Below, piece by piece: positions 187 to 5,538 of a stretch of DNA of 8,984 nt. The DNA comes from a virus (Duplodnaviria; Heunggongvirae; Uroviricota; Caudoviricetes): IMG/VR virus record IMGVR_UViG_2600254977_000009. One strand, 5' to 3'. The position numbers were made by a program, and so were the translations under genes. Below the pieces are notes generated by a model, which worked only from the letters and a program-made list of their open reading frames with translations, searched no databases and was not told the origin of the DNA. Each line of letters starts with the position of its first letter. The first letter of the stretch is position 1.

Positions 187-420
187 AGAACAACCCATTA
201 TCAAATACAAGGCCCGACATGAAAACGCCAGAAAAAGGCATTTTCGGACACTTTCATGTCGGACATTTATGAATGCAATATTAAAAAAAACAAAAAGTTA
301 TATTCGAGAAGTACCGACACGATTTTCCCTGAAAAATTTTCATAAATAGTGAAAAACCGCGAGGTCGCCGCCCCGTAACCTGTCGGATCACCGGAAAGGA
401 CCCGTAAAGCGATAATGATT
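187..420. other. Lambda-type cos site (cosB toward Nu1, cosN cohesive end at 362..373, cosQ side to the right)
   Basis: Plus strand 362..373 is aggtcgccgccc, the reverse complement of GGGCGGCGACCT, which is the 12-nt lambda cohesive end. Flanks (cgtaacctgtcggatcaccgg on one side, cgcggtttttcactatttatg in reverse complement on the other) match my recollection of the lambda right and left ends. Position directly upstream of the Nu1 start is as expected. Confidence 0.8.
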
Positions 421-572
421 ATCATCTACATATCACAACGTGCGTGGAGGCCATCAAACCACGTCAAATAATCAATTATGACGCAGGTATCGTATTAATT
501 GATCTGCATCAACCTAACGTAAAAACAACTTCAGACAATACAAATCAGCGACACTGAATACAGGGCAACCTC

Positions 573-806
573 ATGTCAACGAAGAACAGAACCCGCAGAA
601 CAACAACCCGCAACATCCGCTTTCCTAACCAAATGATTGAACAAATTAACATCGCTCTTGTTCAAAAAGGGTCCGGGAATTTCTCAGCCTGGGTCATTGA
701 AGCCTGCCGCCGGAGACTGTGCTCAGAAAAAAGAGTTTCGCCTGAAGCAAACAAAGAAAAGAGTGACATTACTGAATTGCTCAGAAAACAGGTCAGACCA
801 GATTGA
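573..806 (+). CDS. ynfO: YnfO-like small basic protein (77 aa), possible ribbon-helix-helix DNA binder
   Basis: ORF-track protein MSTKNRTRRTTTRNIRFPNQMIEQINIALVQKGSGNFSAWVIEACRRRL... matches my memory of E. coli Qin prophage YnfO. It sits next to the Nu1 homolog as ynfO does in Qin. The basic N-terminus followed by a strand-helix-helix-like pattern is my inference. The Shine-Dalgarno is weak. Confidence 0.6.
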   Translation: MSTKNRTRRTTTRNIRFPNQMIEQINIALVQKGSGNFSAWVIEACRRRLCSEKRVSPEANKEKSDITELLRKQVRPD

Positions 807-863
807 AGCAATTTAGATAATCGTGCAGACTACCCCCCCTCATATCACATGGAAGGTACTACA

Positions 864-1274
864 ATGGCTCAGATTGCCATTTTTAAACAAATATTCGATA
901 AAGTGCGAAATAATTTAAACTATCACTGGTTTTATTCTGAACTAAAACGTCACAATGTCTCACATTACATTTACTATTTAGCCACAGAGAATATTCATCT
1001 TGTTCTTGAAAACGATAATACGGTTTTAATAAAAGGACAGGGTAAGGTTGTAAATGTAAGATTTTCAAAAAATAAATGCCTTATAGAAGCCACCTTAAAA
1101 GGATTCAAATCAGGAGAGTTATCATTTTACGAATACAGGAAAAATCTTGCTACAGCAGGGGTTTTCAGATGGATTACAAATATCCACGAAAACAAAAGGT
1201 ATTACTATACCTTTGATAATTCATTACTCTTTACTGAGAACATTCAGAACACTACACAAATATTTCCGCACTAA
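864..1274 (+). CDS. ydfO: DUF1398 family protein (YdfO/YbcV-like), AT-rich moron gene
   Basis: Frame of ORF 849..1274. I prefer the second in-frame ATG at 864 because GGAAGG lies 7 nt upstream, whereas the ATG at 849 has no SD. The protein ([18 protein letters not shown]...[24 protein letters not shown]) resembles YdfO/YbcV-type prophage proteins as I recall them. Gene order Nu1 - YnfO-like - YdfO-like mirrors Qin. The DNA is visibly AT-rich compared with the flanks. Confidence 0.65.
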
Positions 1275-1581
1275 ATCATAACGTCCGGTTTCTTCCGTGC
1301 CAGAACCGGACTCGCTGGCATGATGAAATATGTGTACCCGGTAACCCCGGTGTGCATCGTTTTTGATTATTCCCCCACACTTGTGCAGAAGGAGTTCCCC
1401 GTCAGGCTACAGTCATAATTAATGCAAGAGTACAGCGACGATACAGCGCACAGAAATAAATCAGGTATCCATTGACTTCACAAAGACGGTACATAGCATC
1501 GACAGGAGTAATTGCGTAAATTGAACTCTTGGCACACTTTAGCCACCGGCGAATCTTCAGCGGATTATCCTTGGCCGGTTT

Positions 1582-2344: not shown

Positions 2345-2909
2345 TTATCTGTCGATACCCCAGCACGCCAGCGCGCTCTCCTGGTCACGACGGGATACCT
2401 GACCGTAGCAGTTGTTTGAACGAATACGGCAGTCTCTGCCACCGTCCTTAATCCACCAGCGAATCGCCTCACACGCTCCCCTGCGATCACCTGCATTAAT
2501 TCGTTTATAAAACGTCGACGGGAAACACTTACCGGGACCAATGTTGTACGGACAGAATGACGCGATCCCCGCTTTCTGGGGTTCGCTCAATGGCACTTTG
2601 ATGTTTTTCTCCACCCATGCCAGCGCCTTATCACGCTCAATGGCGTTGACCTGGTCGCATTTTTCCTTCGACAGTTTCATACCGGGAAAAACGGGTTTTC
2701 CATCCACCATCGTGGCCCCCCGACAGATGGTCCAGTTGCCGGAACCATCGCGGTATGCCGTAGTGTGGTTACCCTCTTTTTCATCCAGAAACTGGTCAAG
2801 TATCNNNNNNNNNNNNNNNNNNNTGGTCAAGTATCTGAGGAGCTGATGCGCCTGCTCCAATCAGCGCCAGAACTGCAGCTGACAGGCCGTATTTGATTTT
2901 TGCGTTCAT
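2345..2909 (-). CDS. R: SAR endolysin (phage lysozyme, T4-lysozyme/GH24-like fold), reading frame interrupted by a 19-N assembly gap
   Basis: Minus-strand ATG at 2909..2907 gives MNAKIKYGLSAAVLALIGAGASAPQILDQ..., a Gly/Ala-rich weakly hydrophobic signal-anchor-release (SAR) N-terminus. After the N-run the ORF-track frame continues ILDQFLDEKEGNHTTAYRDGSGNWTICRGAT...CWGIDR, with an E...D...T spacing that looks like the catalytic triad of phage lysozymes. The two halves are in different frames only because of the artificial N-run. Confidence 0.85.
2805..2823. other. Assembly gap (19 N) flanked by a duplicated 12-13 nt sequence
   Basis: ctggtcaagtatc immediately precedes the N-run and tggtcaagtatc immediately follows it. 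This is the signature of overlapping contig ends joined by a scaffolding gap rather than missing biology. Confidence 0.9.
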
Positions 2910-3014: not shown

Positions 3015-3287
3015 ATGGACAATAGCACCATTTCTCTACAGGAGTTGCTCGACTGCATTTCCAGGCTTCGGGATGATGTAAATGCCCTCACTGTTGCATT
3101 TTCACATCTGGCCTTATCAATTCCCAGGGAGCAAATGCTGCCAACGCTGGCATCCATTCATTTTGAATCACGCAACCCCAAATGGTCCCAGGAACAACAA
3201 AATTCTTTCAAGTGGCTGGCGGCATTGCTGGAAGAAAATTATGCTGGCAAAACTACCATTTCGGCGGAGTCTTCAGGGAACCAGTAA
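3015..3287 (+). CDS. Hypothetical 90-aa protein on the opposite strand inside the lysis cassette
   Basis: ORF-track protein MDNSTISLQELLDCISRLRDDVNALTVAFSHLALSIPREQML... The ATG at 3015 is preceded by AAGAGGA at a 7-nt spacing (caatcaagaggattatttATG). Its 3' end overlaps the 3' end of the convergent YdfR-like ORF by 35 nt, so one of the two may be wrong or degraded. I do not recognise the protein. Confidence 0.4.
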   Translation: MDNSTISLQELLDCISRLRDDVNALTVAFSHLALSIPREQMLPTLASIHFESRNPKWSQEQQNSFKWLAALLEENYAGKTTISAESSGNQ

Positions 3288-3597
3288 TCCTTCCCGGTAG
3301 CTTTCCTTTGTAGGTTATCCATACATTCTGCGCCTCTAAAATTACGGGGCGCTTTTCCGGCGACTGCTCATCCCCTTCACATAACCCGGCAGCGACATCC
3401 AGGAAGACCTGTCTGATGCTCCTTCTGGCCGCTGCCTCATAAAACTCCAGCGCAGCACCTTCAACACGGTCCAGCGAGATGTCCAGGTCAAAAATTTCAC
3501 CGTCAAAGCGTTCTTTGTCCTGTAATGCTAAAGTTACCGTAACTTTATTCTCAAAATTGCGGATCCCTTTCACAATCAGTTCATAGTTTTGAGTCAT
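3253..3597 (-). CDS. ydfR: YdfR-like (DUF1327) protein between holin and endolysin
   Basis: The N-terminal ~70 aa (MTQNYELIVKGIRNFENKVTVTLALQDKERFDGEIFDLDISLDRVEGAALEFYEAAARRSIRQVFLDVA) resemble the Qin prophage protein YdfR as I recall it. Position between the holin and lysozyme is the same as ydfR between essQ and rrrQ. The C-terminal ~40 aa look unrelated and overlap the plus-strand ORF, so this may be frameshifted or truncated. Confidence 0.65.
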   Translation of the reverse strand: MTQNYELIVKGIRNFENKVTVTLALQDKERFDGEIFDLDISLDRVEGAALEFYEAAARRSIRQVFLDVAAGLCEGDEQSPEKRPVILEAQNVWITYKGKLPGRITGSLKTPPKW

Positions 3598-4535: not shown

Positions 4536-4544
4536 GCCCACAAG

Positions 4545-4776
4545 AAAACCCCTCCGGAGAGGGGCTAAAGCCGCGTATCTGTATCATCATGCACATGGTG
4601 CCGGGTGCCTCCCGGTGAGTTCAGCCCGGTGCCACTAAACCCGCGTCATTCTCGTTTTGATAATCAGAGATTATACCGTCACCAGTCGCCCCTCCGCTCA
4701 GGGGGATTCACCATGCGAAATTTTTTTAACAAATGCCCAGTCTGACAGGCAACTGTCAACTTACTGAATTGTGAGC
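4545..4776 (-). repeat. Copy A of a ~220-230 bp block-conserved element; on the minus strand it ends in an intrinsic terminator
   Basis: Shares identical or near-identical blocks with copy B: cccctccggagaggggct, catggtgccgggtgcctcccggtga, gcccctccgc(t/a)cagggggattcaccatgc, ttttaacaaa, gtcaac, ctgaattgtgag. The blocks are separated by divergent spacers of unequal length. Minus-strand 3' end: CCCCTC-tccg-GAGGGG then TTTTCTTG (plus 4541..4564). Confidence 0.7.
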
Positions 4777-4839: not shown

Positions 4840-5030
4840 TGGAAGGATAGCGGTCATGTGATGCCGGTTTCCCGGTAACTCAGCACCGGTATCTGAGTCA
4901 ACGTTTTCTCTACTGGGTCATTTCCGATACGCCCTGCCTGCTGACAGGCTTTCATCACATCTGAAAATATAGCACCCTGACTGATACTGTAGTACCTAAG
5001 GTTCCAGAAACTGTGATGTATCCGGCACAG

Positions 5031-5245
5031 AAAAGCCCCTCCGGAGAGGGGCTGGAGAGTGGCGCTATGTGCCATTGCATGGTGCCGGGTGCCTCCCGGT
5101 GAATTCAGTACCAGCACCTGAATCCGCGATTATCCCATATACCTACTCGCTGATTGCCCCTCCGCACAGGGGGATTCACCATGCCAGTTTCTTTTAACAA
5201 ACTCCCCGCAAACCAGACAACAGTCAACCGCCTGAATTGTGAGAC
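5031..5245 (-). repeat. Copy B of the block-conserved element; on the minus strand it ends in an intrinsic terminator
   Basis: Same conserved blocks as copy A in the same order. Minus-strand 3' end: GCCCCTC-tccg-GAGGGGC then TTTTCTGTG (plus 5027..5052). Short ORFs that can be drawn through the two copies differ in frame and length, which argues against coding. Confidence 0.7.
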
Positions 5246-5288: not shown

Positions 5289-5365
5289 TGGCGCGTTGTA
5301 CTGGATTCGAACCAGTGACCGATTGCTTAGAAGGCAATTGCTCTGTCCGGCTGAGCTAACAACGC
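5289..5365 (-). tRNA. argO: tRNA-Arg (anticodon UCU), canonical cloverleaf
   Basis: Reverse complement GCGTTGT-TA-GCTC-AGCCGGACA-GAGC-A-ATTGC-CTTCTAA-GCAAT-CGGTC-ACTGG-TTCGAAT-CCAGT-ACAACGC-G-CCA. All four stems pair perfectly and the anticodon loop is CU-UCU-AA. Gene name is by analogy to the ileZ-argN-argO cluster of lambdoid/Stx prophages. Confidence 0.9.
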
Positions 5366-5378
5366 AGGATACAGATAA

Positions 5379-5455
5379 TGGACCGCCTTCGGGGACCCGA
5401 ACTCCGCGCAACCAGCTTCGAAGGCTGGCGCTCTTTCCTGATGAGCTAATGGCGG
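5379..5455 (-). tRNA. argN: tRNA-Arg (anticodon read as UCG), with non-canonical features
   Basis: Reverse complement CCGCCAT-TA-GCTC-ATCAGGAAA-GAGC-G-CCAGC-CTTCGAA-GCTGG-TTGCG-CGGAG-TTCGGGT-CCCCG-AAGGCGG-T-CCA. D and anticodon stems are perfect. The acceptor stem has one A:A mismatch, the T-stem one A:C mismatch, and the T-loop is TTCGGGT rather than TTCRANY. Position between the two good tRNAs supports a real or slightly degenerate tRNA. Confidence 0.6.
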
Positions 5456-5462
5456 TATGTGA

Positions 5463-5538
5463 TGGTGGCCCTTGCTGGATTTGAACCAGCGACCTGGCGA
5501 TTATGAGTCGCTCGCTCTCACCACTGAGCTAAAGGGCC
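5463..5538 (-). tRNA. ileZ: tRNA-Ile2 (anticodon CAU, lysidine type); a tRNA-Met is not excluded from sequence alone
   Basis: Reverse complement GGCCCTT-TA-GCTC-AGTGGTGA-GAGC-G-AGCGA-CTCATAA-TCGCC-AGGTC-GCTGG-TTCAAAT-CCAGC-AAGGGCC-A-CCA. Very similar to E. coli ileX/ileY (tRNA-Ile2) as I recall it. It is the first gene of the prophage ileZ-argN-argO arrangement. Confidence 0.85.

Follow-up and report, generated by a model that had tools for sequence, protein, structure and literature searches.

Independent ynfO and DUF1398 genes in a prophage locus that probably represents a compact Qin-type form of the lambda-family right-end accessory region

Two genes on the plus strand (573-806, and 1274 as the end of a second gene starting at 864 or 849) lie between cos and Rz, antisense to the late operon, in an 8,984-nt stretch of viral DNA (IMG/VR record IMGVR_UViG_2600254977_000009, hereafter the window). 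This locus is probably a compact Qin-type form of the accessory region at the right end of lambda-family phages, in which two independent and non-essential genes, ynfO and a DUF1398 gene, have been joined by mosaic recombination. The ynfO and ydfO-type genes are already catalogued and are carried by lambda and by the majority of E. coli prophages. The pair is an ordinary feature: K-12 has it annotated as ynfO-ydfO, lambda possesses both genes, and each is found in at least half of the complete E. coli genomes. Its interest lies in the fact that two of the commonest E. coli prophage genes are still without a function, as an earlier note on this DNA also held, with one structure solved since 2006, and that the annotation of reference lambda misses a 64-aa ORF, conserved and under selection, that lies 200 bp inside the right end.

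Layout of the locus

The earlier note had described two genes reading against the late operon, the second of them AT-rich. Both ORFs were confirmed on the plus strand (Table 1), and the windowed GC check gave 31.1% for the second (ORF2) vs 49.2% for the window, the lowest value of any 411-nt stretch in all 8984 bases (z = −3.9); the GC content of the first (ORF1) is 44.9%. The locus is 100% identical in DNA to prophages of UTI89, S88 and APEC O1, in which the genes are annotated as 'ynfO' and 'DUF1398 domain-containing protein'. The lysozyme and holin genes lie on the minus strand, as do Rz and Rz1, and the prophage looks intact, with a full lysis cassette, terminase, and head and tail genes. 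On the terminase side, the sequence AGGACCC at about 394-400 is presumably the reverse complement of the cosQ sequence, and the inverted repeat at 471-503, situated 70-100 nt 5' of ynfO, has the same sequence in lambda. No ORF of at least 40 aa, Bor-like or other, was found on the minus strand between 1275 and 1581, and Rfam gave no RNA family match in 150-1700.

Table 1 Features of the right-end region and their positions in the window
Feature	Position	Strand	Basis and remarks
Nu1-type terminase small subunit gene, 5' part	1-186	−	Pfam Phage_Nu1 4.4e-25; RefSeq 'terminase small subunit' in UTI89; runs off window
cosN cohesive-end sequence AGGTCGCCGCCC	362-373		Reverse complement of lambda GGGCGGCGACCT; read directly
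Inverted repeat ATCAATTATGACG / CGTATTAATTGAT	471-503		85% complementary (repeat search); candidate operator/promoter element
ynfO, 77 aa, DUF3950 / YlcI-YnfO	573-806	+	Profiles; RefSeq name
AACAGGTCAGACCAGAT with palindrome GGTCAGACC	787-803 (palindrome 789-801)		Equals published PdhR SELEX box
DUF1398 5' control region/leader, ~75 nt	790-863	+	Alignment of DUF1398 upstream regions
DUF1398 gene (ydfO/ybcV/lambdap78 type), 136 aa	864-1274	+	Pfam; PDB 2HH8; alternative ATG at 849 gives 141 aa
Hairpin GTCCGGTT-13 nt-AACCGGAC	1283-1311		Directly 3' of DUF1398 stop; kept in lambda
Conserved non-coding block, ~120 nt	1332-1450		Between accessory slot and Rz
Rz spanin gene	1582-2046	−	Pfam Phage_lysis 1.4e-52; end of lysis cassette
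Rz1	1644-1826	−	Embedded in Rz

ynfO and its product

The ORF1 product matches Pfam DUF3950 (PF13132; 2e-20, 72.8 bits, curated cut-off 25) and NCBIfam YlcI/YnfO (NF041551; 35.2 bits, curated cut-off 30), and the RefSeq name for an identical protein is ynfO. YnfO consists of a conserved basic N-terminal domain (codons 1-50, 573-722) and a variable tail, here of the Qin type (codons 51-77), with a mosaic joint at codon ~50, and the tail would be supplied by the adjoining mosaic block. The N-terminal domain is nearly invariant among phages and, judged from a dN/dS of 0.10 over codons 1-50 compared to the phage 2851 homologue (dS 0.81), is under strong purifying selection. Together with the dN/dS of 0.33 for ORF2 against lambda, this value indicates that both ORFs are real genes.

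The N-terminal domain most likely would form a DNA-binding dimer of the Arc/Mnt ribbon-helix-helix kind, as suggested by structural modelling and profile alignment. The AF2 model (pLDDT 66.6) contains an extended segment at residues 13-18 followed by helices at 19-32 and 34-52, where pLDDT is ~80. Alignment by hhalign of YnfO 11-34 with residues 8-31 of the Arc family falls in ribbon-helix-helix register with a P of 0.0036 and a probability of only 9%, and a P of 0.012 was obtained with the single Arc sequence. Similar to Arc/Mnt of P22 (PF03869), YnfO is small and basic, and its N-I-R-F-P lies on the N-L-R-W-P of Arc, after which come helix A, a Gly turn and helix B. Unlike these repressors, it has no significant sequence-family match and carries an additional basic arm at the N-terminus and a variable tail at the C-terminus. 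For YnfO, both Foldseek against the PDB and a profile search of PDB sequences returned nothing, and Pfam at E ≤ 10 returned DUF3950 only. The earlier note's reading of the first protein as a small basic DNA binder is counted as probably correct, and the ribbon-helix-helix assignment as weak. Candidate operator sites, judged by their sequence, are the inverted repeat at 471-503 and the palindrome at 789-801.

The ynfO gene is the last one before cos, reads away from it and encodes a small basic, putatively DNA-binding product. DNA resembling ynfO occurs in 3787 of 5426 complete E. coli genomes, in up to 12 places per genome. The DUF3950 gene always adjoins the packaging start in divergent orientation, and it does so with two unrelated modules, Nu1 at about −390 and HNH-TerS at −42. 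A distant DUF3950 match in phage vB_KppS-Ant, lying antisense inside another gene, was dropped.

The DUF1398 gene and its control region

ORF2 matches Pfam DUF1398 (PF07166) over the entire profile (1-119 of 119; 3.3e-43, 147 bits, curated cut-off 22) and the structure of E. coli YdfO, PDB 2HH8, with an E value of 2e-69, assigning it to the YdfO fold. These matches agree with the family names given in the earlier note, as does the length of 136-141 aa, which depends on the start codon. A start at 849 would give 141 aa; the better one at 864, giving 136 aa, is preceded at 8 nt by GGAAGG, is used by RefSeq and is the only one kept in ycgX. The product is a small soluble alpha/beta protein. None of Asp, Glu, His or Cys is invariant across the family, which shows no catalytic signature; given the lack of a conserved catalytic residue set, DUF1398 probably works by binding to some component of the lysogen, and we infer a host-modulating role. 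DUF1398 of the ORF2 lineage is present in 2717 of 5426 complete E. coli genomes.

Dispensability for lytic growth was shown in lambda, in which the counterpart lambdap78 was non-essential by CRISPRi with normal plating (EOP ~1.9; PMC10695390). A report in which ydfO was essential only by TraDIS (PMC5821084) was set aside as a probable mapping or insertion-bias artefact. Protection from oxidative stress by over-expressed YdfO, credited by PMC4077768 to Wang 2010, was likewise not adopted; ydfO is absent from the main text of PMC3105296.

About 75 nt upstream of the gene are conserved in the window, lambdap78, K-12 ydfO, ybcV and ycgX. Identity among the DUF1398 genes begins at AGGTCAGACCAGATTGAA, and the sequence further 5' is unrelated between groups. 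The PdhR box AACAGGTCAGACCAGAT, which overlaps the last ynfO codons, marks the start of this region, and its palindrome is flanked by an inverted repeat (772-781/807-816). A −10-like GATAAT (816-821) and a Shine-Dalgarno sequence, GGAAGG (851-856), were read by eye in the leader. A consensus scan of the plus strand detected no strong sigma-70 site for either gene and no T-run terminator, nor was a canonical terminator found between or after the two genes in the window; the hairpin at 1283-1311 lacks a T-run and is therefore not a canonical intrinsic terminator. The DUF1398 gene would be an AT-rich cassette bringing its own control region from the PdhR-box palindrome onwards.

Expression of the K-12 copies is conditional. 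SELEX located a PdhR box inside K-12 ynfO>ydfO, and ybcV mRNA was 10-fold lower in a pdhR mutant (PMC7660256). The DLP12 gene ybcV rose >1000-fold on expression of T4 MotB, in a paper whose title refers to altered H-NS-dependent repression (PMC7827196), and ydfO was induced 12- to 116-fold by ionic liquid (PMC4077768), all of these data being from cryptic prophages of K-12 and not from the UTI89-type prophage of the window. The K-12 copies would be strongly repressed, with the repression lifted by a treatment that its authors link to H-NS, conditionally induced and dependent on PdhR. The K-12 DUF1398 copies appear to be largely silent in the laboratory.

Relationship to Qin, lambda and morons

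The closest arrangement in K-12 is that of Qin (b4533, b1549), where nohA, a Nu1 homologue, diverges from a 234-nt ynfO, followed after a 57-nt spacer by a 411-nt DUF1398 gene, with the same type of YnfO tail and the PdhR box AACAGGTCAGACCAGAT. The window differs in that Rz follows after ~300 nt in an intact-looking prophage, whereas Qin has gnsB/ynfN/cspI cargo, and its DUF1398 allele shares about 78-80% aa identity with the Qin-type entries P0008-P0011.

In lambda, both genes are also opposite to the late operon between Rz and cos, beside bor. Over the 340 nt nearest cos, which take in ynfO codons 1-48, identity is ~99%, as it is for positions 430-572 with the lambda right end; the region preceding DUF1398 and the hairpin after it are conserved too. 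The lambdap78 product shares 75.6% aa identity with that of ORF2, and a YlcI-type ORF of 64 aa, lacking a RefSeq annotation, is found at 48109-48303 (complement). Differences are a ~590-bp insert with lambdap79/ybcW between the genes, another, shorter YlcI tail and bor downstream, so that the window corresponds to the right end of lambda without bor and without the ~590-bp lambdap79 insert. The borD-ybcV-ybcW-ylcI-nohD order of DLP12 has the same layout as the lambda right end. The earlier note had placed the pair in the slot where lambda carries bor; the position is right, but the wording is imprecise, as lambda has homologues of both genes beside bor.

Like bor and lom, the lambdoid morons, a concept reportedly due to Hendrix and Juhala, the DUF1398 gene shows deviant composition (31% GC in ORF2 vs 49% in the window), presence/absence polymorphism (ORF2 is absent from phage 2851 and most DUF3950 phages), presumed independence of the late operon and dispensability for lytic growth. 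Bor, however, is an expressed lipoprotein with a serum resistance phenotype, and for the genes in the window no canonical promoter or terminator was detected: the conserved 75 nt 5' of DUF1398 hold GATAAT and the PdhR box, a hairpin follows the second gene, and the consensus scan gave neither a sigma-70 site nor a T-run terminator on the plus strand.

Independence of the two genes

A two-gene regulator-plus-effector unit, raised in the earlier note, was not sustained. In the set of 316 related DUF3950 loci, sorted by YnfO tail type, DUF1398 follows DUF3950 only with Qin-type CSEKRVSPEANKEKSDITELLRKQ[IV]RPD tails, at about +42/43 nt, and loci with other tails never have DUF1398 next and usually have no co-directional gene downstream. 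Among phage records, DUF3950 occurs in 152 and DUF1398 in 43. In phage 2851, a hairpin with a T-run, by eye an intrinsic terminator, lies within ~170 nt of the DUF3950 gene. DUF1398 genes also stand alone, such as ybcV in DLP12, ycgX next to bluR and orphans in Kluyvera, Klebsiella, Salmonella and Raoultella. As each gene is found without the other and DUF1398 has its own upstream region, the locus consists of two juxtaposed units and not of an operon or toxin-antitoxin pair. This independence narrows future work, with YnfO to be examined for DNA binding and DUF1398 as a single gene de-repressed under certain conditions, instead of both as one 'system'.

We therefore regard as unlikely an operon of the regulator-plus-effector or toxin-antitoxin-like kind, in which a ribbon-helix-helix YnfO would neutralise or control DUF1398 through its tail, despite several points in its favour. 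The genes share strand and frame across a gap of 42-57 nt, the Qin-type tail and DUF1398 occur together in 126 of 127 loci, and a conserved N-terminal DNA-binding domain with a variable tail recalls ribbon-helix-helix antitoxins of the ParD/RelB/CcdA type. The conserved adjacency and co-inheritance of type II toxin-antitoxin pairs were not observed, since most DUF3950 genes lack DUF1398, orphan DUF1398 genes are common and the lambda pair is split; in lambda and DLP12 the two genes are separated by ~690 bp that include a gene in the opposite orientation. Apparent YnfO-DUF1398 fusions (cluster P0013, 233 aa, 761 members) are gene-calling artefacts in which the junction TGA, present in the contigs, was read as Trp; translation of these contigs did not reproduce the query. 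The production of YdfO for an NMR structure, and a glycogen screen in which a clone over-expressing ybcV was scored (PMC2853380), argue against strong DUF1398 toxicity.

Two side observations concern the junction. The linkage between Qin-type tail and DUF1398 is also what a tail-effector interaction would produce, and not solely physical linkage. ORF1 and ORF2 are separated in frame by a single TGA, so that read-through is formally possible; a shared frame is expected in ~17% of cases by chance.

Other readings of the locus

The position and orientation of the pair, like those of bor, and its AT-rich, accessory character, polymorphic in related phages, would suit an anti-phage defence or superinfection exclusion function expressed from the lysogen at a classical moron position. 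We consider this very unlikely. K-12 is the standard permissive coliphage host, and it carries three DUF1398 and two DUF3950 genes; both genes are also in lambda itself. Neither an enzymatic nor a membrane signature was seen, and PADLOC-DB yielded no significant match, with none for ORF1 and Csx23 as the best for ORF2 (E 0.026, 12.6 bits; next 0.04). We found no publication tying ydfO, ybcV, ycgX, ynfO or ylcI to defence. On the other side, lambdap79 triggers the Vulcan defence system (bioRxiv 10.64898/2026.09.04.749371), which indicates that the lambda right-end region does take part in phage-host conflict. A virion or morphogenesis role for DUF1398, suggested by the 'head protein' label of PHROG 413 and by product names in RefSeq lambda and GenBank, including 'putative envelope protein', is extremely improbable: these labels go back to entries 'Predicted by GeneMark', the gene is antisense to the late operon, its sequence shows by eye no signal peptide or hydrophobic segment, paralogues are found beyond prophages, or in any case in diverse non-phage surroundings, and silencing of lambdap78 left plating normal as described above.

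The location of ynfO, 200 bp from the right cohesive end and reading inward, could also point to a role of YnfO/YlcI at the genome end, as a DNA binder linked to cos and packaging or as the product of the first gene entering the cell, the right end of lambda being injected first. Its constant place beside the packaging start with two unrelated modules and its nearly invariant N-terminal domain agree with such a role. Against it, the regions 5' of the Nu1-type and HNH-type DUF3950 genes share no motif above chance that could be a common operator, the 7-mer TAACGTA being all they have in common (~chance level), and the YlcI ORF, unannotated in reference lambda, has no reported phenotype; lambda packaging has no known requirement beyond cos, terminase and IHF. 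We hold this role to be highly improbable. Conservation and position would also fit a broader scheme, which we think distinctly unlikely, in which YlcI/YnfO is a trans-acting regulator common to co-resident lambdoid prophages, for instance via the palindrome 5' of every DUF1398 gene, and the DUF1398 proteins are effectors released under stress, with the host or incoming phages as targets. The preferred reading remains that of two independent accessory genes brought together by mosaic recombination.

The conserved block on the Rz side

The block at 1332-1450 did not behave as a structured RNA, with z-scores of −1.1 and +0.3 and a positive covariation term, and this assignment was rejected as unsupported. 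Of the 232 related loci that have the block, 96 lack DUF1398, and its lambda counterpart sits between lambdap78 and bor.

Gene layout and identity

The two genes between cos and Rz are already known, as the ynfO-ydfO (Qin-type) version of lambda's right-end accessory region. Both lie where the earlier note had placed them, on the plus strand and against the late operon, in a window oriented in reverse of the lambda map (see the table). Its description of the second gene as markedly AT-rich was borne out by a windowed GC check, in which ORF2 (31.1% GC, compared with 44.9% for ORF1 and 49.2% for the window) was the lowest-GC 411-nt window within 8984 bases (z −3.9), thus confirming the observation. 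The start of ORF2 at 864 was preferred over 849 given a GGAAGG 8 nt upstream and its agreement with the RefSeq start; it is also the sole start kept in the distant paralogue ycgX.

Features of the window with their coordinates
Feature	Position	Strand	Remark
Nu1-type terminase small subunit start	1-186	−	ORF, profile and annotation
Lambda cohesive-end sequence	362-373		read from sequence
ORF1, 77 aa	573-806	+	between cos and Rz
ORF2, 141/136 aa	849/864-1274	+	between cos and Rz
Rz / Rz1	1582-2046 / 1644-1826	−
Lysozyme gene	2345-2860	−
Run of 19 N	2805-2823		masked or unknown bases
90-aa hypothetical protein gene	3015-3287	+	PHROG 2411
YdfR/DUF1327 gene	3253-3597	−
P21-type holin gene		−
sRNA family STnc100, two copies	4536-4745 and 5023-5213	−	161 and 136 bits
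Three tRNA genes	5292-5538	−	Arg, Arg, Ile in UTI89 annotation

The proposed family assignments, YnfO-like and DUF1398, were right: ORF1 matched Pfam DUF3950 (2e-20) and NCBIfam YlcI/YnfO, both above cut-off, and ORF2 matched DUF1398 (3.3e-43) and PDB 2HH8, the NMR structure of E. coli YdfO (2e-69). Over positions 430-1560 the DNA matches prophages of UTI89, S88, APEC O1 and the E. coli type strain at 100% identity; their annotation names the genes ynfO and 'DUF1398 domain-containing protein'. Both are real genes: dN/dS came to 0.10 over codons 1-50 of ynfO, compared with its phage 2851 homologue (dS 0.81), and to 0.33 for ORF2 compared with the lambda homologue. Of 5426 complete E. coli genomes, 2717 carry DUF1398 genes of the ORF2 lineage (3411 places), 3787 carry ynfO-like DNA (8365 places, at most 12 in one genome) and 2169 carry full-length Qin-type ynfO. 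The genes were also seen in many ENA contigs of ~3.5 kb, with varying ORF lengths, and in 'plasmids' or proteins labelled Staphylococcus, Bacillus, Acinetobacter, Synechocystis, Campylobacter phage and even a spider; all of these look to us like probable contamination of assemblies by lambda control DNA (right-end amplicon).

Comparison with Qin, lambda and DLP12

The architecture is shared with K-12 Qin, in which nohA is divergent from ynfO (234 nt), followed by a 57-nt spacer and ydfO (411 nt). The suggestion that the pair occupies the slot where lambda carries bor is imprecise: lambda carries bor and also both genes. The DUF1398 gene of lambda is lambdap78 (47042-47575, complement; 75.6% aa identity to ORF2), and its DUF3950 gene is a YlcI-type ORF of 64 aa (48109-48303, complement; 2710-2904, minus strand, in our lambda locus L002), ~200 bp from the right cohesive end, with 94.5% identity to YnfO over 55 residues. 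This ORF has no annotation in the RefSeq NC_001416 and J02459 records; the DLP12 copy is named ylcI in the K-12 annotation, and the YlcI-type domain shows purifying selection (dN/dS ~0.08-0.10 relative to phage 2851). DLP12 has the lambda layout (borD-ybcV-ybcW-ylcI-nohD).

In DNA alignment, the cos-side sequences of window and lambda are ~99% identical up to and including ynfO codon ~48, after which the window lacks ~590 bp that hold lambdap79 in lambda; homology restarts exactly at AGGTCAGACCAGATTGAA and runs through DUF1398 and the downstream hairpin. A 2026 preprint reports that lambda evades the Vulcan defence system by lambdap79 deletion via recombination with Qin (bioRxiv 10.64898/2026.09.04.749371), which gives a compact arrangement as in the window.

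Two independent units

We scored 316 DUF3950 loci from IMG/VR and other records with HMMs. The tail CSEKRVSPEANKEKSDITELLRKQ[IV]RPD was the only type with DUF1398 next to it, at about +42/43 nt, and DUF1398 was present in 126 of the 127 such loci having enough sequence. No DUF1398 was found within 1.5 kb of the tails STESSGMNYIIK, INEKYSQFVPNKDKHDQSTCSDRFT, AADIKYARQLTIKKNDTQYALRWLFI, ATDATHLRPASM.. and TSEKRAYTSIQSDDG, which mostly had no co-directional ORF downstream either. The phage 2851 DUF3950 gene has a good Shine-Dalgarno sequence and, within ~170 nt downstream, a hairpin and T-run that we took, by eye, for an intrinsic terminator. What stays constant beside DUF3950 is the packaging-module start (Nu1 at ~ −390, or HNH then TerS at −42). 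Conversely, DUF1398 stands alone in DLP12, beside bluR (ycgX) and, in varied contexts, in Kluyvera, Klebsiella, Salmonella diarizonae, Raoultella and Pseudocitrobacter.

When the upstream regions of five DUF1398 genes were aligned (window, L002, L032, L033 and L344; alignment A7), they proved to share a conserved segment of ~75 nt (790-863 in the window, starting at AGGTCAGACCAGATTGAAG), kept even in chromosomal ycgX (43% aa identity); DNA farther upstream is unrelated between groups, indicating that DUF1398 carries its own 5' region along. Here this region overlaps the last ynfO codons, and the mosaic joint falls where the conserved YnfO domain ends. The segment is a probable shared control element, judged from sequence, and holds the palindrome reported as a PdhR box.

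The regulator-plus-effector arrangement raised in the earlier note, or a toxin-antitoxin pair, would couple the two genes. The strict association of the Qin-type tail with DUF1398 fits physical linkage and interaction alike and cannot distinguish between them. ORF1 and ORF2 also share one frame, separated by one TGA (804-806, inside the inverted repeat 772-781/807-816) and 14 sense codons; this is probably a coincidence, with about 0.17 expected by chance and no genuine fusion seen. What looked like a natural fusion of YnfO with DUF1398 (protein cluster P0013, 233 aa, 761 members) was rejected as an artefact, as the contigs carry the TGA at the junction; this and the like clusters P0428 and P0431 (loci L026-L031, e.g. 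L026 1274-1975), from a metagenome protein collection, evidently arose from a TGA-as-Trp code used on short AT-rich contigs. Because each gene is found alone and DUF1398 moves with its own 5' region, with the joint at the YnfO-domain end, a coupled pair is not supported by conservation, and ynfO and the DUF1398 gene are independent units.

A further conserved block of ~120 nt (1332-1450) recurs in 232 related loci, of which 96 lack DUF1398; in lambda it lies between lambdap78 and bor. No RNA structure or covariation was seen in it, and the region gave no Rfam match; as a guess, promoter or terminator signals serving the adjoining accessory slot may lie within this block.

Predicted properties of the proteins

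The first 50 residues of YnfO (MSxKNRTRRTTTRNIRFPNQMIEQINIALxQKGSGNFSAWVIEACRRRL) are near-invariant across all variants, and the tails wholly different. The AlphaFold model (pLDDT ~80 in the core, 66.6 overall) has an extended stretch at 13-18 and helices at 19-32 and 34-52, the topology of a ribbon-helix-helix monomer. With hhalign, YnfO 11-34 aligned on Arc 8-31 (RNIRFP with FNLRWP), with P 0.012 for Arc by itself and 0.0036 for an alignment of the Arc family; Mnt by itself gave 0.2. Searches by Pfam, PDB profile and Foldseek gave no supporting match. We regard an Arc-like DNA binder as likely but not established; its candidate sites would be the palindrome 789-801 and, upstream of ynfO, the inverted repeat 471-503.

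Distant DUF1398 members share no invariant Asp, Glu, His or Cys; what they conserve are aromatic and aliphatic residues, Gly and Asn, a pattern that favours a binding protein over an enzyme. Reading the sequence by eye showed no hydrophobic segment. Database labels that call the product 'head protein' (PHROG 413, RefSeq) or 'putative envelope protein' go back to GeneMark predictions and clash with the gene's orientation and with lambdap78 being non-essential by CRISPRi (PMC10695390).

Expression of the K-12 copies and proposed roles

Over-expression of T4 MotB raised DLP12 ybcV and ybcW more than 1000-fold, in a study whose title refers to altered H-NS-dependent repression (PMC7827196), and the ionic liquid [C2mim]Cl raised ydfO by 12-fold (array) to 116-fold (qPCR) in a growth-phase-dependent manner (PMC4077768). 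Genomic SELEX placed PdhR boxes between ybcV and ybcW and inside ynfO>ydfO, and ybcV mRNA fell 10-fold in a pdhR mutant (PMC7660256); the ynfO>ydfO box, AACAGGTCAGACCAGAT, was found at 787-803 of the window. DicC induction alters ydfO, ybcV over-expression gave a glycogen phenotype (PMC2853380) and ybcV::Kan strains are viable. No function was assigned in any of these studies. PADLOC gave no significant match for either protein, and no literature tying ynfO/DUF1398 genes to defence was found.

Most likely, YnfO would be a small Arc-like DNA-binding protein with its gene at the genome end, and the AT-rich DUF1398 gene would normally be repressed, with conditional expression of a non-enzymatic cytoplasmic protein that putatively acts in the lysogen; the evidence underlies the first half only of each statement.

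Other features of the window

The run of N falls within the lysozyme gene and accounts for the X residues in its translation. Inside the lysis cassette, a further gene against the late operon encodes the 90-aa hypothetical protein, which has no Pfam match and is annotated by RefSeq in UTI89; it is convergent with the YdfR/DUF1327 gene and overlaps its 3' end. Downstream of the DNA methyltransferase gene come the tRNA genes, an order shared with Stx-type lambdoid phages.
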